A DNA stretch of 64,000 nucleotides, taken from the NCBI GenBank assembly GCA_951406725.2, contig OX597825.1:77934001-77998000 (forward strand), written 5' to 3'. Below, one piece after another: positions 2,765-56,926 of this stretch. The position numbers and the translations under genes are program-made. Each line of letters starts with the position of its first letter. The first letter of the stretch is position 1. Source of the stretch: Octopus vulgaris (lineage: Eukaryota). The notes beneath the pieces were generated by a model. The model was given only the letters and a program-made list of their open reading frames with translations, made no database searches and was not told the DNA's origin.

Positions 2765-2808
<44 letters not shown>

Positions 2809-2929
2809 CTTTTCATTGCATTAAGTGACTTCCATAGTTGACCTATCTCCGTAACATACATAGCCTTCGTATTTGTTTACAAATATTATAAGTAGTATTG
2901 GACAGTTAAAGTATATGTTCATAAAATTT

Positions 2930-3062
2930 GATTAAAATGGTTGGATGAACATTTGGCCCAATCGGATGCGTATGATGCGTTGATATGTTGGTTCGATTCT
3001 GGTCTGGGTCAGCTCATCATTTTCCAGTCAATTGTTTATATTAAAAAATGCCGCTTTAAATC

Positions 3063-3065
<3 letters not shown>
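2930..3065 (+). mobile_element. tRNA-headed short element (family E)
   Basis: A-box-like 2954-2965 and B-box 2990-2999; body matches 11250-11362 and 20398-20480. Confidence 0.65.
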
Positions 3066-4353: not shown

Positions 4354-4360
<7 letters not shown>

Positions 4361-4652
4361 ATCACGTGACCGACCAGACCATCAGATGCTGCTACACATC
4401 GCTGGTCACAATGCGTTCGCATTGTTTTAGCCTTCGAACGACGCCACCCCGCTGGCTAAGCGAGCAGGCCAACAGAAGAAAGTGGGAGAAAGAGTGGTGA
4501 AAGAGTACACCAGGGATCACCACCCCCTGCCGGAGCATCGTGGAGCTTTTAGGTGTTTTCGCTCAATAAACACACACAACGTCCGGTCTGGGAATCGAAA
4601 CGGCGATCCTCCGACCGCGAGTCCGCTGCCCTAACACTGGGCCATTGCGCCT

Positions 4653-4654
<2 letters not shown>
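4354..4654 (-). mobile_element. tRNA-headed SINE, subfamily C1 (possibly octopus OR1/OR2 group)
   Basis: tRNA-like head with A/B boxes on the minus strand; 5' half shared with 14659-14930; tail ends cacgtgatcacgtga-(TA)n; second copy 56709-56927. Confidence 0.8.
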
Positions 4655-7417: not shown

Positions 7418-7555
7418 ATTAGTATAGCGCTCAGGAATAGAAAAAGTCTTTTACGTTTCGAGCCTACGCTCTTCGACAGAAAGATACACAGATAAAAAAA
7501 CAAGGAGAGAAACAAGGAGAGAAAAAAATGCGTGTAGTAGCTAACGATGGCGTCT

Positions 7556-7556
<1 letters not shown>
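7418..7556 (-). mobile_element. Solo PLE pseudo-LTR fragment with hammerhead (7447-7484)
   Basis: Reverse complement closely matches ~42815-42965; reads tcttt-CTGTCGA-a-gagc-gtag-gctc-GAAA-cgt-a-aaaga. Confidence 0.85.
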
Positions 7557-10149: not shown

Positions 10150-11044
10150 TGCATATATGCATATATACATATAGATGAGCAAATATGTTGATGGTAGCTT
10201 GAAATAGTACTGTAGTATACTCTACAGTACGTAGTATTTGGTACATAAATACCTGTCGTACCAAAGTGGTTAATCTGATGCCATTTGTTATGCAAACATT
10301 ATACAAACGACTGCCAAATGACTTCAATATCAAAAATAAATCATATCTATTCGTTATTGTTATGTAGTTGTCTGGGAGCGAGCTACAGTGTAATGCAGAA
10401 GGCTGCAACGTCGATAAATCTTGCAAGTTGCTTGTGTAACTAACAAGTTCGGGTTAAGTCAAATTGTGTTCTTTGGGTAAATAACTTTCCTTCTAGTAAA
10501 TCCCTACCATGTAGAATAATGCCCTCTAAGTGAATTTGATAATCACAAGAGGCATAGCGACTTGGACAAGTGTCTTCTACTATACTCTCGGACCGACGAA
10601 ATCGTGAGTGGATTTTGTAGACGGAAACTTAATTGTTTGTCTAAAGAAAAACCTAAAGGAAAATTTTCTGACTTAAAACATAAGTACTGAAATTCGATAT
10701 ATCAAATTAAAACCTTTAAGGTGGTACCCTAGCATGGTCCCAGTCCAATAACTGAAACAAGTGGAAGAATAAAAGAATATTTTTTCATCAACTGTGTGAC
10801 GTCATTGCGCTAAATTTGGTGGGATATCGTCTTTAAAATATAATTTGAGGGCTGATATACGTATGAATATGTTCGTAGTAATGTCCAAGGCGTCCTGTAT
10901 TGTATTACATTGTACAAATATATACATGTATGTACATACATATATATTCACATATATGTGTGTATGTATTTGTATATATAAATATATATCGACATACATT
11001 TGTTTGTATGTATTTATATATATATATATATATATCGCGCATTT

Positions 11045-11385
11045 ATAAACAATCCAGAAGGCTTTGTAAGTTACGGAGAGAAAGCTACTATGGAAGTCTA
11101 TTAGTACAAGAAAACTATAATAATATATATATATATTTTATCCTATATAAAGTGTCATTTATCTATAAACAAATTGAATGAAAAATGATGAGCCAGAATC
11201 GAACCCACATGTATATGCGTAAAACTTTGGCTGAAATTGATGGGTGAGTGTTTGGTCCAGTGGAATGTGCATGTAAGTCATGTGGGTTCGAATTTGGATA
11301 GGGTTAGCTCATCATTTTTCTGTCAAATTGTTTATATATAAATGTCGCTTTAAATCGTAGAATATATATACTATTATTGTGATAT
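11045..11385. mobile_element. Family E tRNA-headed element with inverted duplication
   Basis: A box 11253-11263 and B box 11285-11294; arms ~11165-11208 and ~11278-11336; 11045-11130 is the reverse complement of ~20500-20583. Confidence 0.7.
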
Positions 11386-14658: not shown

Positions 14659-14930
14659 GGAGGCACATGGCCTAATGGTTAGAGCAGCGGATTCGCGGTC
14701 GGGAGATCGCGGGTTCGAATCTCAGACCGGACGATGTGTGTGTTTATGAGCGAAACACCTAAGCTCCATGCGGCTTCGGCAGAAGGTAATGGCGAACTTC
14801 TGCTGACTCTTTCGCCACAACTTTCTCACACTCTTTCCTCCTGCATCTTGCAGCTCACCTGCGACGGACCGGGAAACCGGGAAACCGGCCTTTATGAGCC
14901 AGGAATAGCTCGAGAAGGAACAAACTAAAC
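14659..14930 (+). mobile_element. tRNA-headed SINE, subfamily C2, with TSD
   Basis: A box TGGCCTAATGG, B box GGTTCGAATC; TSD ttttcgtcattcc at 14642-14654 and ~14935-14948; second copy 30825-31128. Confidence 0.9.
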
Positions 14931-15369: not shown

Positions 15370-15986
15370 TAGGGAGTATAACTCCAAATTTACACGGAAA
15401 AATTCAATTTAGTATTAAATCAAATTTCACAATATAAATATACAAAATATAAATTAGAGATAAAACCACTATTATGCAATTCAAACAATGATAGACATAA
15501 AGCAAATCATAAATAGCAAATAAAAAATATTTTTATAAAACATATACCTAGATAAAAAAAAGTATAGAAATGAATTATCGATATATAATCTTTTTACTTA
15601 TTATATATTGATTATTCATTTTTATACTTTTTTTATCTAGGTATATGTTTTATAAAAATATTATTTATTTGTTATTTATGATTTGCTTTATGTCTATCAT
15701 TGTTTGAATTGCATAATAGTGGTTTTATCTCTAATTTATATTTTGTATTATATATATGTGTGTGTGAGTATTTGTGTGTCTGTATTTGTCCCCCACCCCC
15801 AACATCACTTGACAACCGATGCTGGTGTGTTTATGTACCCGTAACTTAGCGGTTCGGCAAAAGAGACCGATAGAATAAGTACTAGGCTTACAAAGAACAA
15901 GGCCTGGGGTCGATTTGCTCGACTAAAGGCGGTGCTCCAGCATGGCCACAGTCAAATGACTGAAACAAGTAAAAGAGTAAAAGAGT
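15168..15986 (+). mobile_element. SINE family A, full length, with nested fold-back insertion
   Basis: tRNA-like head, CORE-like accttgggcaagtgtctt, internal microsatellite, tail gtaaaagagtaaaagag; at least 12 related copies in window. Confidence 0.9.
15369..15748. repeat. Near-perfect AT-rich fold-back with ~150-bp arms
   Basis: Arms 15440-15589 and 15600-15748, 10-nt loop, extension 15369-15439. Confidence 0.9.
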
Positions 15987-18214: not shown

Positions 18215-18445
18215 ACATGAAACCGTTAATCCCGACACATTTTTCTCTTCCCATGTGTTTTTTGTTTATTTTTGTTTTTTTCTTTCTCTTTCTCTCCATT
18301 TTTTTTCCTCTCATACATTTCTGTCAAAGAGAGTAGGCTCGAAACGCCAAAGACATTTCCATTTTTACCGAGCTTCAAACGAATACATCTGCGTGTTGTT
18401 CCCTCACCTGTCTCTGTCTTTTGGTGTCTGTAAATTTGAACATGG
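18215..18445 (+). mobile_element. Diverged PLE pseudo-LTR with decayed hammerhead (18318-18353)
   Basis: ctgtcaaagagagtaggctcgaaacgccaaaga aligns to 42894-42926. Confidence 0.7.
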
Positions 18446-20250: not shown

Positions 20251-20583
20251 TAACTGTATAATAACATATTATGATTTATATTATCCGATTTGAAGCGACT
20301 ATTCCTAAATACAAAGAAATGACAGAAAAATGATGAGCTAACGCTAACCAGAATCGAATCCACAAACCAGCGATTACATGGCTCCTTGCGCATCCGATTT
20401 GTGAGTTCGGTTCTGGCTAGGGTTAGCTCATCATTTTCCAGTCATGAGTTTGTATTTAAAAATTGTCGCTTCAAATCGGAGAATGTACATTATTATGATA
20501 TATTATTATACAGTTATTATTATACTATGAGTCTTCCTTGGTAGCTTTCTCCCTATAAATTACAAAGCCTTCCTCCTTTGTTA
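20251..20583. mobile_element. Family E element as an asymmetric hairpin between (TA)n tracts
   Basis: Arms 20251-20366 and 20398-20516; extension 20519-20583. Confidence 0.8.
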
Positions 20584-21389
20584 TATATATATATATATAT
20601 AATATTTTACTTGCTTCAATCAGTGAGACATCGACTTCAAGGGTTTTAGTCAAAAGAATCGACCCAGAGTACCTATTTTTATAGCCTGGTACTTATTCTA
20701 TTGATCTCTTTTGCAGAAATGACAAGTTGTAGGGACGTAAACAGACCAACACTGGTTGTCAAGCGGTGTGCAGTGACAAACACAGAAACCAAGTCACACA
20801 CATACACACACACACATACACACACACATATATATATACGAATATTACATGGAGACATACATATGTACATACATATACGCACGCATGCGCACACACATAT
20901 ATATATGCGTTTATATTTGTGTATGTATGCATGAATATATGTATACAAATATACATAGAAGATCACATATGTACACCATAATTAGTTTGTTGTGGGTGCA
21001 TAACGAAATTGCACGTGTCATCAGGTCTGTAATATTTACATACCAGCGCCGGGAATGCGTTTAATATGTAAATTGGTATATCCAATAACTTAACACCGTT
21101 GTATGCAGTGGCTATATAAACAATATGTTTGGAGACAAGAATGGGTTAGATGAGTGCTGATGGAGGAGCAACAACCCCCGAAGTATGGCATATACACTCA
21201 ATAGCCTATTTTTGTCTCCGATCTCATTGTTTGCACCAGTGCTGGCTATAATTTCTGTTGCAATAACCTTAATATATATATATATAGGGCAATTTTATCA
21301 TGTTGAACCGTTAAAATTTAGACGTTTATTTTTTTCTTTTCACTCGCTCTCTCCGTTTTTTACCTCTTAATCTGTCGAAGATATATATA

Positions 21390-22599: not shown

Positions 22600-22685
22600 A
22601 TAATAGGAAGCTTTATGAAAATAGACAAAAGACGAAGAAACAAACAAACAATTGTATTAGTATGGCGCTCAGGAAATATAAATAT
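22600..22685 (-). mobile_element. PLE extreme 3' terminal fragment in (TA)n
   Basis: Reverse complement of ~42935-43025 with a small deletion. Confidence 0.8.
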
Positions 22686-30824: not shown

Positions 30825-31128
30825 AGTTTGTTTGTTCCTTCTCGAGCCATGCCTGGCTCATAGGGGCCGGTTTCCCTGTTTCCTTGGCGTATAGGTTCCC
30901 CACCTGGACGGGACGCCGGTCCGTCGCAGGTGAGCTGCAAGATACAGGAGGCAAGAGTGAGAGAAAGTTGTGGCGAAAGAGTCAGCAGAAGTTCGCCATT
31001 ACCTTCTGCTGGAGCCGCGTGGAGTTTAGGTGTTTCGCTCATAAACACACACATCCCCGGTCTGAGATTCGAACCCGCGATCCCCCGACCGCGAGTCCGC
31101 TGCTCTAATCACTCGGCCACGTGCCTCC
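30825..31128 (-). mobile_element. SINE subfamily C2, full length, with TSD
   Basis: Very similar to the reverse complement of 14659-14930; flanking repeat tccgtaaattaa at 30813-30824 and 31126-31137. Confidence 0.9.
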
Positions 31129-31526
31129 GTAAATTAATGTACCAGGCATTATTGCACCCCGATCTGAATAACGAAGTCCCACCGTCTTAACCCTTTTCCC
31201 AATCATTCCCAAAATGACGTTAATTATCCACAAAAAGATAGAATTGATGTCCTGCTTCTGTAATACTTTCTCATTATCTCCTGTGGGTTCTTTTCCATGG
31301 CCACCTCTAAAAGTATTTCATTCTTGCTCTTTTAAGAAATGTGTGAAAAATTATGGGAAACGAAATCATAATGCACGCGCACGCTGTGTGATGTGTATAA
31401 GTGTGTATGTATATGTATGTATGTGTTTGTCTGCACGAATAGGTGTGTGTGTGGTTCTGACCCAGCATGGCCAGAATCCAAAAATCAAAATATATAAAAA
31501 GAACAGAAAACAGTTAGCTACATTCG

Positions 31527-32150
31527 TTGCTAAAAATAGCAGCCAGATCGAACCTTCTTTTTGTTTAAAACTTCACGCCTTCCCAACCCACTTCTGTTGC
31601 TACAGTCATTGCTAAAAATAGCAGCCAGATCGAACCTTCTTTTTGTTTAAAACTTCACGCCTTCCCAACCCACTTCTGTTGCTACAGTCATTGCTAAAAA
31701 TAGCAGCCAGATCGAACCTTCTTTTTGTTTAAAACTTCACGCCTTCCCAACCCACTTCTGTTGCTACAGTCATTGCTAAAAATAGCAGCCAGATCGAACC
31801 TTCTTTTTGTTTAAAACTTCACGCCTTCCCAACCCACTTCTGTTGCTACAGTCATTGCTAAAAATAGCAGCCAGATCGAACCTTCTTTTTGTTTAAAACT
31901 TCACGCCTTCCCAACCCACTTCTGTTGCTACAGTCATTGCTAAAAATAGCAGCCAGATCGAACCTTCTTTTTGTTTAAAACTTCACGCCTTCCCAACCCA
32001 CTTCTGTTGCTACAGTCATTGCTAAAAATAGCAGCCAGATCGAACCTTCTTTTTGTTTAAAACTTCACGCCTTCCCAACCCACTTCTGTTGCTACAGTCA
32101 TTGCTAAAAAATAGCAGCCAGATCGAACCTTCTTCTTGTTTAAGATTTCA
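31527..32150. repeat. 82-bp tandem array, 7 identical units plus a diverged partial
   Basis: The gctaaaaa motif recurs at 31529, 31611, 31693, 31775, 31857, 31939, 32021, 32103. Confidence 0.95.
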
Positions 32151-32947
32151 TGTCTTCTCCACAAATATTATCTCAATACCATTCCGTTTCTACTTCAGAA
32201 GTACTTGGAATCCATACTTTCATCGCAATTTTCATCAATGGATTATTCTGAGAACATTGTGTTACTGTAGAGTTTGAAAACGTAATCCCTGTGGGTTTCG
32301 CTAGTTTAGCCTTTCGTTGAAACCAATAACAAAGGTTCTTTACATTTTTATTTTTCTCTTCACAAAAGACACATTTGCTCAATTCCCTTCGGTAATGATA
32401 AATAACTCTTGTATAAGAGCTCGGTCTGTTGAAGTACTTCAATTCTTACGAGGCTTGTTCACTCTTTCATAATTCTTTTCTCTTCTCTGCCATTTCCAAG
32501 ATTCGTTTGATTTTATACTCCGCTCGAACCATTCATGTGTCCAAACACTGCTTTTAAATTTTGGCACAAGGCCAGCAATTTCGAGGAAATACATAAGTCA
32601 ATTACAACAATCCCACTGCTCAACTGTTACTTATATTCTTTTGTACTCTAGACACAAGGCTCTTAATTTATCGACCCCGAAAGGATGAAAGGCAAAATCG
32701 ACCCATGCAACACGCGAGCAACATACATACATATACAACATCCATCCATCCATCCTTCCATCCGTCCATAAATACATATATACATACATACATGCATACA
32801 CACATACATACATGCATACATACATACATGCATACACACATACATACATACATGCATACATACATACATACATACATACATACATACATACATACATACA
32901 TACATACATTCATTCATACATACATACATACATACATACATACATAC

Positions 32948-39939: not shown

Positions 39940-40468
39940 CGAGGGTGGGTCAAAAGGTAATGCCATTTTGTTTAGGACAGGTATAATTACCAACACAGGA
40001 ACATGTATCATACATTAAAATGAAGCTGGTCCTCTGTGGATCACATCCCTCTTTCTCAACCTAGTCACCGTTTATCTCAATAGCAATGTTCCACCTTCAA
40101 ATGAGAGCATGTATTCCTGCCCCCGTAAAATTCTATTGACTGGTCTTCACTACCTCCATACTCACCAGACTATCATCTCTTCGGTGCCACGAAAGAGGGT
40201 TTGAGAGGCAAACATTATTCCAGTCACGAGGAAGTGGAAACTGTAGTGAAGAAGTGGCTCGAAGAACAGTTATCAGAATTTAACGGGACAGGGGTACATG
40301 CTCTCATTCGAACGTGGAACATTACTATTGAGAGAAACGCTGACTGTGTTGAGAAGTCGGGATGTGATCCAAAGAGGACCAGCTTCATTTTGATGTATGA
40401 TACATGTTCCTGTGTTGGTAATTATACCTGTCCTAAACAAAATGGCATCACTGTTTGACTCACCCTCG
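39940..40468. mobile_element. Mariner-derived palindromic MITE (both arms from the 3' end)
   Basis: TA-cgagggtg...caccctcg-TA; ~200-bp inverted arms; plus strand encodes PYSPDYHLFG..KEGLRGKHYSSHEEVETVVKKWL...DCVEK. Confidence 0.9.
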
Positions 40469-40504
40469 TATATATGCATATATATATATATATGTATGTA
40501 TGTA

Positions 40505-42052
40505 TACAAACCCAACAACCCTGGCCGCCCCATCGTCTCCGCCTGTAACTGCCCCACGGAGCTCATCTCTAAATACCTCGACCGTGTCCTTGCCCCCCTA
40601 GTGGCATCTCTTCCCTCCCACATCCACGATACCAACCATGCTCTCCGGCTTTTCAACTCTTTCTCCTTTCCTCCCGGCTCCTCCAAAATCCTTTTTACTA
40701 TGGACATCCAAAGCCTCTATACTGTTATCCCTCACCACGAAGGACTGCAGGCCCTTCGACACTTTCTTGACCTCCGCTCTAACCCTGTACCTGACACCTC
40801 CACACTCATTCGTCTGGCCGAACTTGTCCTTACTCTGAACTGCTTCTCGTTCGCGGGCGAGTTCTACCATCAGGTCTCGGGAGTGGCCATGGGAACGCGA
40901 ATGGGCCCCAACTATGCGAACCTGTTCGTTGGCTATGTTGAGGCCCAAATATTCTCTAATTTCACTGGTCCCACTCCTGAACTATATGGTCGTTATATTG
41001 ACGACATTATCGGTGCCACCTCACTCTCCCGCGAACATCTAGATTCCTTCCTCTCTTTCGTCCAATCTTTCCATCCAGCCCTCCACTTCACTTCCACTAT
41101 CTCCAACACCTCTGTCTCCTTCCTCGACATTTCGGTTAGCATTCTTCACTCCACTCTTACCACCTCCATTCACTACAAACACACAGACTCACACTCATAC
41201 CTCAACTTCTCTTCCTCCCACCCAGAACACACCAAGCTTTCCATCCCCTATTCCCAATTCCTCCGTCTACGTAGGCTCTGTAGTGACGACCATGACTTTG
41301 AGACTCAGTCTCAACGTATGGCTCACCACTTCACCCTACGTGGATACCCCCTCACCACTATCCACACCGCCCTTGCCAGAGCACGGTCCGTGGACCGTGT
41401 ATCTGCTCTCTCTCCCCGAACCCGCCCTGTAGTCTCCCGCCTCCCTTTTCCCCTCACTTACCACCCCACGACCCTACGTCTCCAACGCACCATTCTTCGA
41501 GCTTTCCGTCATCTCCAGTCCGACCCGTCCACTTCACACCTCTTCCCTAACCGACCCCTCCCCTCTTTCAAACGAGCCCACAACCTTCGAGACCTTTTGG
41601 TCCATAGCTCCTTCCCTGACCCTACCTCCCAACCCGGCTCGTTCCCATGCTCCCGCCCACGTTGCCGCACTTGCCCTTACCTCTCCAACACCACCCGCCT
41701 CACTAGCACCCACCATCGACCCTATCCCATCATCCACTCCTTCACCTGCACCTCCAGCAATATTATCTATTGCATCTCTTGCTCTCTCTGCAATTCCTTG
41801 TACATCGGACAAACGGGACGCCGCTTGGCTGACCGGTTCGCGGAACACCTTCGTGACATCCACCTTGCGAACGACACACCGGTCTCACGCCATTTCCGCT
41901 CCACCGGTCACTCCTTGCAACACCTATCTGTGTTCGGTTTGTCCTTACACAGAGGCCATCCGGATTCCCGTTTGCGCCGTGAACAGGAATTAATCTTCTC
42001 TCTTCGCTCTTATACGCCATTTGGTCTCAACTCTCCTCCCCTCCTCATCTAA
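40505..42052 (+). CDS. PLE reverse transcriptase + Cys-rich linker + GIY-YIG endonuclease (515 codons, N-terminally truncated)
   Basis: PGRPIVS, LFTMDIQSLYT, GVAMGTRMGPNYANLF, YGRYIDD, SFLD, RLRRLCS, CSRPRCRTC, IIYCISCSLCNSLYIGQTGRRLADRFAEH; no stops or frameshifts. Confidence 0.95.
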   Translation, partial: YKPNNPGRPIVSACNCPTELISKYLDRVLAPLVASLPSHIHDTNHALRLFNSFSFPPGSSKILFTMDIQSLYTVIPHHEGLQALRHFLDLRSNPVPDTSTLIRLAELVLTLNCFSFAGEFYHQVSGVAMGTRMGPNYANLFVGYVEAQIFSNFTGPTPELYGRYIDDIIGATSLSREHLDSFLSFVQSFHPALHFTSTISNTSVSFLDISVSILHSTLTTSIHYKHTDSHSYLNFSSSHPEHTKLSIPYSQFLRLRRLCSDDHDFETQSQRMAHHFTLRGYPLTTIHTALARARSVDRVSALSPRTRPVVSRLPFPLTYHPTTLRLQRTILRAFRHLQSDPSTSHLFPNRPLPSFKRAHNLRDLLVHSSFPDPTSQPGSFPCSRPRCRTCPYLSNTTRLTSTHHRPYPIIHSFTCTSSNIIYCISCSLCNSLYIGQTGRRLADRFAEHLRDIHLANDTPVSRHFRSTGHSLQHLSVFGLSLHRGHPDSRLRREQELIFSLRSYTPFGLNSPPLLI

Positions 42053-42888
42053 CCCCCTCTCCCCCTCCTCACCTATCCTGTCTCCCCCCGACCCCTACTT
42101 CTTCAGTCCTTCATCCTTTTCACCCCTACTCCCCTTCCCTTCTTCCCTCTTTCTCCCTCCCTCTTCCCCTTCCCTCTGCTCCCTCACTCCCTCTCTCCCC
42201 TTCTCTCTCCCCCTCTCCATCTTTCCTCCTTCATCCCGCTCCTCCCCTTCCTTCTCCCCCATCCTCTCCTCTTCCCCCTTCTCCTCCCCCTCTTCTCCCC
42301 CTCCCCTTCTCTCCCCACCTCTTCTCCCCCTCCCCCTCTTCTCCTCACTACACCACATGACTTTACACATCACATCACATATGATGTGCCATACTAATAC
42401 ACACACCAACTAATACATACTAATACGTACTAATACATACTAGTACATACTAATACACCAACCCTATACATACACACGTCCAGACCCCGCATACGCACTT
42501 ATACTCTCACACACACACACACACACCTATACATACCAATACGTACTAATACATACTAATACATACTAATACATACACCAACCCCATATATACGCACGTC
42601 CAGACCAATCCTACGCACTAATACTCTCTCATACACACACACACACACACACCCTTATGCATACTAATACATACACCAACCCTATACATACACACATCCA
42701 GACCCCTCCCACGCACTATTAGCTGGTCCCTCAACCCTTTTATCAACCCTATTATCTCCCCCTATTTCGCTCTCGCGTCTCATGTTTGATCTTTGACCTC
42801 TGGCCGAAATCAGATCGCCATGTTGATTCGTTAGCTACTGCACGCATTTTTTTCTCTCCTTCTTTCTGTGTTTTTCTCTCTGTGTGTA

Positions 42889-42926
42889 TCTTTCTGTTGA
42901 AGAGCGTAGGCTCGAAACGTTAAAGA
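42889..42926 (+). ncRNA. Minimal hammerhead ribozyme of the PLE pseudo-LTR (A6U variant)
   Basis: tcttt-CTGTTGA-a-gagc-gtag-gctc-GAAA-cgt-t-aaaga; palindromic ACGT stem III. Confidence 0.75.
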
Positions 42927-43023
42927 CTTGTTTTATTTATATTTCCTGAGCGCCATACTAATACAATTGTTCGTTTGTTTTCCACCTGCCTTCGTCTTTT
43001 GTTTATTTTCATAAAGCTTCCCG

Positions 43024-43075
<52 letters not shown>

Positions 43076-44114: not shown

Positions 44115-44632
44115 TTAGTTAATTAGTTAAATTAATTTGGCTCAAAAGCAAATAGCAAGGGACATGGAGTTAAGTACAGGGTGGTGTTCATGTAAAGAGT
44201 TCAGGCCACTTGAGGTCAAGGGAGGCTTTGAACAAAGCGGTCGTCGGTATCTTCACCATCTCGTCTGGCAGCTTGTTCCACGGATCCGCAACCCGGACGG
44301 AGAAAGCTCCTCTCCTTCGATTGAGATGAAATCGTCGCAGGTTTTCGGAATGACCCCGCAGCCGACGCTCTGGAGCAGGAGTGAAGAACAGCTCTTTCGA
44401 GAGATTACACTTTCCGCTTATGATGTTGTGGGCGACAATGAGATCACCACGGCGGCGGCGTTTTTCTAGAGAATAAAGGTCGAGCGTCCTCAGCCTTTCT
44501 TCATAGGACAAATTTTTGAGACCATGAACCATGCGGGTAGCCAGCTTCTGGACTCTTTCGAGATGCTGTATGTCTTTGAGGAGATAAGGAGAAGAGGCTC
44601 GAATCCCGTACTCCAATATGGGTCTCACCATA
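44115..44632 (-). mobile_element. CR1-clade LINE 3' fragment
   Basis: VRPILEYG..SPYLLKDIQHLERVQKLATRMV.GLKNLSYEERL..LDLYSLEKRRRRGDLI...WNKLP...FKASLD; short tandem-repeat tail. Confidence 0.92.
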
Positions 44633-44864
44633 TGAATGTATTTTGATTTTAGTTTGCATATCCATACATATATATGTGCATATCCCTACATATTTATCTG
44701 GCCGCTCTGTATGGGTGTTTACTATCGTATTTTGCAAACAATACAAAAAATATCTATATAATGTACTAGCAGATCTTATGTAAGCATTTTTGTATTGTTT
44801 TCCTCAGCTTGTGACTGGTTTTTTTCGCCTACTTATTTCACCTACTTATTTCCTTTCTTTAGCA

Positions 44865-54236: not shown

Positions 54237-54331
54237 ATGTATGTATGTATGTATGTATGTATGTATGTATGTATGTATGTATGTATGTATGTATATGTAT
54301 ATATCCAAATTGAGGGAGTGGAAAAGGTAAA

Positions 54332-54427
54332 ATCCATGCTACATATGTTTGCTAGCAAACCCATCCACTGAAGTAATAATTACTCAACGAGAGTGTACTC
54401 GGTCAACTATTCATCAGGCCGAAGATA
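54332..54427 (-). ncRNA. Decayed hammerhead (inverted partner of 54550-54641)
   Basis: Minus strand ggc-CTGATGA-atag...ctag-CAAA-catatgta-gc; G12 lost. Confidence 0.55.
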
Positions 54428-54549
54428 ACCTCACTATATGAAGGTTACATTGTCATTAAGGAATTCCAAATTAACTCGTCAAATATGTGATCTGAAATGA
54501 ATAAAACAACAGAATAAACCAACGACAATGTAGCATTCATATAATTAAG

Positions 54550-54641
54550 ATATCCTCGGCCTGAGGAGTAGGTAGTTGAGGACGCCTCGTTGAGTTATTA
54601 CAGAAGATCTGCTAGCTAGGAAACATATGTAGCCTGGATAT
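54550..54641 (+). ncRNA. Type I hammerhead ribozyme, canonical core, long stem-loop II
   Basis: Stem I atatcc-tc-ggc / gcc-t-ggatat; CTGAGGA 54561-54567; tag/cta stem II; GAAA 54620-54623; ACATATGT; GUA site. Confidence 0.75.
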
Positions 54642-54874
54642 GACCCGCTCCACTTTCTCACCATTTATTCGCATTCATAGCAACTCTGTTTGCTAATCGT
54701 GAGCTTTACATAACATTTTTCAGCTCCTCTAGCTTCGATATGGGAAAAGCTTCCAATCTTCGACGCCGATGAATTATTATTGTTTCTGGGGGTTGTTTTT
54801 TTTACACCTAACATGGACTGCTCGAAGATAACAAACTTTCTACAGTTAAATCCTTGGATCTTATGCTAATAATG

Positions 54875-55941: not shown

Positions 55942-56260
55942 TAATGTAGGATAAAATTTTTTCGAAAAAAATTTTTATCAATGGCCAGCGTATTAAAAAA
56001 TACCTTTAAAGGTTAAATTTATAACCAACTTATAAATGAGGGCAAACGAAAAAATTTCTAATGCCGACGAAGGGAGGGTTCTTACGAACTAACCCTGAAA
56101 TCGGTCCGATATGGTAATAATGGAATTTTTTAGAAATTTCATTCGACCTTTTTTGGGTAGCGTGCGTATTGTGAAAAAATTATAATGGTTATGGACACTA
56201 TGTCTAATTTCGGCATATTTGGCATTAGAAACTTTTTCGTTTGTCCTCATTTATAAGTTG
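55933..56260 (+). mobile_element. Asymmetric fold-back insertion in (TA)n containing an HHR-like motif (56060-56110)
   Basis: Arms 56026-56065 and 56221-56260; CCGACGA 56064-56070, agggtt/aaccct stem, GAAA-tcgg-TC. Confidence 0.7.
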
Positions 56261-56655
56261 TATATATATATATACACACACACATTTATATAAAATAATC
56301 AGTATATAAGTCTTAATTTATCAAACTTCAATAAGTTTCATCAAATAAATGAAGTAGAATAGATATTAGAATGGATTATCCTTTTATCTCATAATCCCAT
56401 ACATACATAGAAGGATAAGCACATCATGAAATACTTTACGCGAGATGAAAACAGATTGTGTATTCCACTTTATATGCAAAATGCACATACATGCAAACAC
56501 ACACGTACATTACATGCATATATACAGACAAACAGACAGACGGATAGATAGATAGGTAGGTGCGTATTTTTGTATGTGTACATATATATATGTGTGTGTA
56601 TGTGTTTGTGTATATGTAGCAACATCTGATAGCCTGGTCGGTCACGGTGATCACG

Positions 56656-56708
<53 letters not shown>

Positions 56709-56713
<5 letters not shown>

Positions 56714-56926
56714 CGTGATCACCGTGACCGACCAGGCTATCAGATGTTGCTACACATCGCTGGTCACAATGCGCTTCGCATTGTTTTAGCCTCCAAAAGA
56801 GTGAGAGAAAGTTGTGGTGAAAGAGTACAGCAGGGATCACCACCATCCCCTGCTGGAGCCTCGTGGAGCTTTAGGTGTTTTCGCTCAATAAATACTCACA
56901 ACGCCCGGTCTGGGAATCGAAACCGC

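Follow-up and report, generated by a model that had tools for sequence, protein, structure and literature searches.

The genome of Octopus vulgaris carries a short repeat that is probably a non-autonomous, ribozyme-free, tRNA-containing passenger of a Penelope-like element (PLE). Three copies occur in the 64-kb stretch of DNA analysed here (the window). Integration of the Penelope type is well supported by features of the sequence: insertion at TA, arms placed head to head whose inner breakpoints vary, an optional tail present on one arm and a permuted direct copy.

Copies and their organisation

The copies are found at 2803-3064 (copy 1), 11043-11385 (copy 2) and ~20253-20584 (copy 3) and match each other with E values of 1e-12 to 1e-20, in agreement with the positions proposed in the initial annotation of this DNA. 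Sequence comparison of the window revealed no fourth copy. The repeat unit includes, in order, a leader, a tRNA-like part, GCTCATCA with a T run, a body, an AT-rich linker and a 65-nt tail. It is ~330 nt long (parts summed), non-coding and of low GC content (34-35%). No reading frame for an RT and GIY-YIG nuclease is present in the three copies, and a 49-codon open frame of copy 2 has no Pfam match, no homologue and Atlas scores all <0.8. The parts are arranged as follows:

2803..2886, plus strand: copy 1, end of the AT-rich linker and tail, upstream of the leader and in direct orientation
2887..2953, plus strand: copy 1, leader (2911-2953 common to copy 2)
2954..3064, plus strand: copy 1, A box at 2954 (0 mismatches), B box at 2990 (1 mismatch), T4 run at 3020-3023 and body, ending at (TA)n
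11043..11211, minus strand: copy 2, inverted arm that includes the tail (~11045-11112), with a truncation immediately upstream of the B box and a 10-nt deletion after it
11211..11385, plus strand: copy 2, direct arm without tail, with leader, A box at 11253, B box at 11285, T5 run at 11315-11319, body and AT-rich linker
20253..20399, minus strand: copy 3, inverted arm without tail, with linker, body, T5 run and the tRNA-like part to the middle of the A box (from self-alignment, arm comparison and contig loose ends)
20396..20517, plus strand: copy 3, direct arm starting just before the B box, with T4 run at 20434-20437, body and AT-rich linker
20518..20583, plus strand: copy 3, tail of 65 nt, on the direct arm only and abutting (TA)n

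The B box, the GCTCATCATTTT motif and the body are common to all five arms, which bears out the shared body described initially. Pairwise identity between the arms is 77-86%. Since arms within one insertion (84%) are no closer to each other than arms of separate insertions, the family appears to be old.

Copies 2 and 3 both include a partial inverted copy placed head to head, as had been observed before. The two arms of copy 3 overlap by 4 nt and folding of its hairpin gives a z value of -12.4. In copy 2 the direct arm is longer than the inverted arm; the two insertions differ both in their inner breakpoint and in which of their arms is the longer. Copy 1 is without inversion and runs from linker to tail, leader, head and body, ending where the linker would begin. 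By this order it is nearly a complete unit in circularly permuted form. The 65-nt segment is homologous among the three copies (its score was reached by 0/1000 shuffles), and a comparison limited to these three sequences detected no conserved structure in it. It had been described as terminal, which is correct for one arm only: it lies on the right arm in copy 3, on the inverted left arm in copy 2 and upstream of the head in copy 1. The outer ends of the insertions fall at two fixed places, the end of the linker and the end of the tail, while the inner junctions vary.

The family in public contigs

Part of copy 3 is present in 20 public runs from 10 studies. Contigs from four of these runs were aligned to copy 3 at 80% likeness, giving 503-558 contigs per run. 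The summed depth on copy 3 is hundreds of times that of a single contig, a ratio which is not a copy number. Altogether 41 joints were obtained, of which 15 were displayed, and each of them (at 80% likeness) is represented by one or two contigs. Four of the 15 lead from an inverted to a direct arm at places other than that of copy 3, and three of these come from one run, which means that they cannot all be alleles of a single locus. There is also a fifth junction of this kind. One joint steps back head to tail and was found in two of the four runs. The other displayed joints include two mirror artefacts of the palindromic query, four same-orientation jumps and four strand changes within an arm for which no direction is given. 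Loose ends behind 20399 (10-21 contigs per run) run on past the A box to reach the leader that copies 1 and 2 also have, with 30 letters shown. The repeat is a multi-copy family with additional breakpoints.

TA tracts and flanking sequences

All six ends of the copies lie within 10 nt (0-9) of a (TA)5+ tract, compared with 4.4% of non-tract positions in the background, and the TA-rich target first proposed is thereby upheld. Three other interspersed families of the window gave 5/12, 1/12 and 0/6 ends in the same test. Some of the flanking TA runs may have originated from the AT-rich linker of the repeat. Like the initial annotation, we saw no TSD: the copies are not flanked by direct repeats of ≥5 nt that include non-AT bases, a search to which a TA-only duplication would be invisible.

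The window is rich in microsatellites (29% is masked) and includes several interspersed repeat families. Another abundant interspersed repeat (20645-20790) begins ~60 nt to the right of copy 3, and a young tandem array with an 82-bp unit (7.8 copies, 98% matches) occupies 31517-32157. A 165-codon frame at 44188-44685 on the minus strand has no Pfam match; we take it to resemble the C-terminus of a CR1/L2-group LINE.

A tRNA-type promoter inside the unit

The window was scanned for an A box with ≤1 mismatch together with a B box with ≤2 mismatches. Of the five sites returned, two are those of copies 1 and 2, and the remaining three belong to copies of a different tRNA-type SINE. Shuffling produced an A+B pair in 0/2000 cases for copy 1 and in 5/2000 for copy 2. 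Complete pairs are limited to these two copies, as the left arm of copy 3 ends inside the A box and its right arm begins just before the B box; the A/B-box head that had been attributed to all three copies is therefore complete in two. The boxes are separated by 24 nt and 21 nt in copies 1 and 2; when copy 1 is combined with the left arm of copy 3, the spacing is 33 nt. ARAGORN folds this composite into a 73-nt cloverleaf with weak pairing, only when its threshold is lowered to 65%. At the default setting it reports no tRNA in the window, and Rfam gives no tRNA match in any copy, only weak hairpin-type matches.

A run of four or five Ts normally stops Pol III. Such a T4-T5 run starts 19 nt past the B box of the repeat, whereas the control SINE has none for 208 nt, and T5 is the majority form in all four runs of public contigs (79-94% of summed depth). 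At least 45 nt common to copies 1 and 2 precede the A box, and the initial view of an element headed by its tRNA part has to be abandoned. The tRNA-derived A and B boxes are real, yet they are not an ordinary SINE head. Judged from the order of its parts, the layout is that of a putative decayed tRNA gene with its flank and terminator inside a longer unit. The designation SINE-like is thus appropriate for the boxes and not for the position of the head, which is internal and has a Pol III stop signal between it and the body and tail.

These observations bear directly on whether the repeat might be a true Pol III SINE, transcribed from the tRNA head past the T run as far as the tail, the RNA then being inserted by a PLE enzyme. 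This would be a special case of the passenger reading and we regard it as possible, with the odds rather against it. The strong A and B boxes at tRNA spacing are what it would require, and Pol III promoters of schistosome repeats are described as transcribing the next unit (part of the review PMC6765202). It has to contend with the position of the T run, the predominance of T5 in every run and the sequence that precedes the head in the copies.

Search for ribozymes

A descriptor search of both strands of the copies detected no hammerhead. The descriptor recovered 24/53 Hydra loci on the sense strand and two on the other, and missed the variant motif of a Neptune-type element (see below), so its sensitivity is limited and decayed or variant cores could escape it. 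One opposite-strand candidate (TGATGAG ... CGAA) was rejected: C3 is absent from the core in all five arms, there is no stem and its second half is the reversed B box. Where a hammerhead core is present in the Hydra-type metagenome loci (L001-L120), it is mostly located 193-275 nt downstream of the C-terminal CxxC codon.

A model for insertion

We propose that the ~330-base unit is copied into TA tracts by the RT and GIY-YIG nuclease of a Penelope-like element. The enzyme would nick both strands of (TA)n and start two cDNAs at two sites on the RNA, with the result that one arm would include the tail and the other would not; the two truncated cDNAs would then be joined head to head. The template was probably a tandem or circular RNA, for the leader is copied despite its position upstream of the promoter, and the tail of copy 1 runs straight into the leader, evidence which in the latter case comes from that one copy. 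Such a template may arise by Pol III read-through of the T run; otherwise the tRNA part could itself be a passenger in a read-through transcript.

Many of these steps have counterparts in the literature. Partial tandems, an inverted 5'-truncated copy, a tail of 30-40 bp often at one end, a (TA)n bias and non-autonomous forms are all described for PLE insertions in parts of PMC8557442. Sections of PMC11167929 place the PLE tail between two sites at which the RT starts, show cutting and extension of both strands of the DNA at AT-rich sites, and find that in vitro the hammerhead need not cleave. With two fixed outer ends and inner junctions that vary, the copies of the repeat fit these descriptions closely. 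The tail of the repeat, at 65 nt, exceeds the published 30-40 nt. Among 120 metagenome Hydra-type PLE loci, 12 are inverted close to the 3' end, and the head-to-head arrangement of 10 of these 12 indicates that the strand chosen in the initial annotation is the RNA strand, with the tail at the RNA 3' side.

The main rival to a passenger is that the unit is the pLTR (end repeat) of an autonomous PLE with a tRNA-type promoter, the copies being ordinary short 5'-truncated insertions. Every structural feature of the unit is also a feature of PLE ends, and the leader, seen only as far as the 30-letter loose ends, may reach further 5'. We consider this explanation rather improbable: the unit is without an open frame or hammerhead, and the tail of copy 1 leads into the leader. 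No coding sequence follows it there, unlike the tail of PAc, which occupies the beginning of the ORF (part of PMC11167929).

If the unit is indeed a passenger, it might belong to a class of Pol III-driven retroposons without a ribozyme, in which a captured tRNA gene would drive a read-through RNA; once tandem or circular, this RNA would be copied by a PLE RT from two starts into (TA)n. We put this forward tentatively, in the expectation that it may well prove incorrect. The further suggestion that such ribozyme-free, Pol III-driven retroposons would fill the place of SINEs in the third class of retroelements is equally speculative. Were it true, Penelope enzymes would carry tRNA-promoter passengers as LINEs carry SINEs, with no need of a hammerhead, and some cephalopod repeats labelled SINE or MITE by pipelines would be PLE-driven. 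So short a unit would also narrow what the enzyme must recognise in the RNA, namely the linker and tail. Given its apparent age, the family informs mechanism and annotation and not present activity.

Candidate helper elements

The window includes one element with the appropriate enzymes:

40498..43026, plus strand: Neptune-type PLE (from Pfam, relatives and linker motif), with a 5'-truncated RT and GIY-YIG frame to 42052 and a 3' region reaching 43026; flanked by TA tracts, it exemplifies a PLE insertion inside the window and is a candidate helper

Its frame (40498-42052) matches the Pfam domains RVT_1 (E 1.5e-7) and GIY-YIG (E 0.003), has relatives reaching 58% over the full length and carries a CX4CXXC linker, as in Neptune elements. 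The 3' region is CT-rich and includes a hammerhead-like motif with a variant core at ~42894-42925. Short Neptune 3' pieces also occur at ~7420-7556 (minus strand), 18300-18423 (plus strand) and 22600-22685 (minus strand). The three tails of the repeat match the same 16-19 nt near the 3' end of the Neptune-type element, weakly (p 0.06, 0.34 and 0.05), and whole copies compared with the whole element gave p values of 0.25-0.64. The structure of the insertions favours the proposed dependence on a PLE, with the Neptune-type element as a candidate helper only.

Other leads concern the opposite strand. On the reverse strand of the tail, RLC.L occurs in all three copies, which accounts for three of the five such matches in the six frames of the window (chance ~5e-4 for the pentapeptide, calculated post hoc). 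Copy 2 has Y-x4-RLCKL on this strand, with a spacing like that in Hydra-1_Obim when compared by eye with an entry in the PMC8557442 supplement. Compared with Hydra C-termini, copy 3 gave p 0.02 and copies 1 and 2 gave p 0.54 and 0.38. With Hydra profiles of 59 and 147 sequences, the best frames of the repeat ranked 74th and 149th of 3474 tile-frames and did not enter the top 25. At the DNA level copy 3 showed two 26-nt matches to Hydra loci, with E 0.07 and in another frame. One of six 10-letter probes matched the 3' UTR of two octopus Naiads, where more short blocks can be seen in order by eye. Six probes of 11-13 letters from the repeat found no match in the PMC8557442 supplement. Probes from the repeat likewise had no match in metagenome and viral contigs, and a single 22-nt match in a bacterial genome is due to chance. 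The Neptune, Hydra and Naiad leads cover the same bases and are mutually exclusive; none was accepted as the helper.

Read on the other strand, the copies could derive from the 3' part of a Hydra-clade (or Naiad) PLE that has since decayed, their tRNA likeness being incidental or captured. RLC.L in the three tails, Y-x4-RLCKL in copy 2, the Naiad probe and the p value of copy 3 are in its favour. We think this unlikely, given the p values of copies 1 and 2 and the profile ranks. Moreover, the fixed ends would then fall 5', with the 3' ends pointing inward, contrary to 10 of the 12 Hydra inversions, and the Hydra and Naiad likenesses, which occupy the same bases, cannot both hold.

DNA transposons and LINE-dependent SINEs

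A MITE or other fold-back DNA transposon targeting TA runs could explain why copies 2 and 3 are long hairpins in a window that has other palindromic elements, one of them symmetric-ended between TA. It would have to accommodate a copy 1 without an inverted arm, inner breakpoints that vary and a tail that makes the ends asymmetric and switches sides, and is most improbable. Nor did we find the fixed TIR ends, or a match to the LINE piece of the window, by which the initial annotation would have been refuted. An ordinary LINE-dependent SINE, inverted by twin priming or later rearrangement, is likewise a very poor prospect: the boxes are tRNA-derived and LINEs and SINEs are abundant in octopus genomes (part of PMC13282606), but two of three copies are inverted with both 3' ends outward, the leader and T run are present and the LINE fragment gives no match.

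The palindrome with symmetric ends (39940-40468) resembles a Tc1/mariner-type MITE, has arms ~80% alike and is situated directly upstream of the Neptune frame. Other fold-backs unrelated to the repeat are found at 2476-2754, 15444-15744, 54311-54660 and 56030-56256. Several adjoin TA tracts and they could be MITEs or head-to-head PLE ends. At 56600-56740 there is an inverted pair around (TA)n, and its right arm leads on into a tRNA-type SINE family. This may be a further family with Penelope-style ends, to which the region 4355-4605 also relates; more copies of that SINE family occur at 4370-4653, 14659-14867 and 30921-31128.

Comparison with known systems

Our literature search, which excluded subscription papers, Repbase and Dfam, found no description of this family or of a tRNA-bearing, ribozyme-free PLE passenger. 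The initial annotation did not know the pairing of a SINE-like family with PLE machinery to be well documented. The pairing is less novel than this implies, as published descriptions exist of PLEs that are non-autonomous, of retrozymes connected with the end repeats of PLEs and of SINE-like schistosome repeats driven by Pol III.

tRNA-derived SINEs, such as the other families of this kind in the window, resemble the repeat in their A and B boxes at tRNA spacing, short length and high copy number. The repeat differs in its internal head followed by a T run, its inversions and the lack of a visible LINE-like tail or TSD. Short (~170-400 nt), low-GC retrozymes have been proposed to be moved by PLEs (parts of PMC7229834 and of bioRxiv 10.64898/2026.07.22.740005). 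With the metazoan non-LTR retrozymes described there the repeat shares a short, low-GC, non-coding unit of ~300 bp, and its permuted copy would fit a tandem or circular RNA. It differs in that no type I hammerhead was found in it and no full tandem array in the window, and in having a tRNA-like gene. In the SINE-like repeats of schistosomes, as treated in part of the review PMC6765202, the Pol III promoter likewise lies away from the 5' end of the mobile RNA unit, and a tandem arrangement is required. They carry a hammerhead; none was detected in the repeat described here, and its head-to-head pairs and optional tail point to insertion of the PLE type.

The closest parallels are among PLEs. 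Non-autonomous Chlamys elements (MRC1) are also protein-less PLE passengers with end repeats, from a clade that is mostly without canonical hammerheads. They share 3' sequence with an autonomous partner, and the passages of PMC8557442 devoted to them report no tRNA part, whereas the repeat has a tRNA part and candidate partners only. Truncated EN+ PLEs (Neptune, Hydra, Naiad and Poseidon) likewise insert at (TA)n and show a truncated copy in inverted orientation, a partial tandem and a tail at one end (parts of PMC8557442 and PMC11167929); the repeat is distinguished from them by the absence of an ORF, its 65-nt tail as against 30-40 nt and its internal tRNA-type boxes. Its internal tRNA part, which a Pol III stop signal separates from the body and tail, sets it apart from SINEs, and the lack of a detected hammerhead sets it apart from retrozymes. 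As far as its structure allows us to judge, the repeat is not a member of the SINEs, retrozymes or MITEs and works like a non-autonomous PLE.
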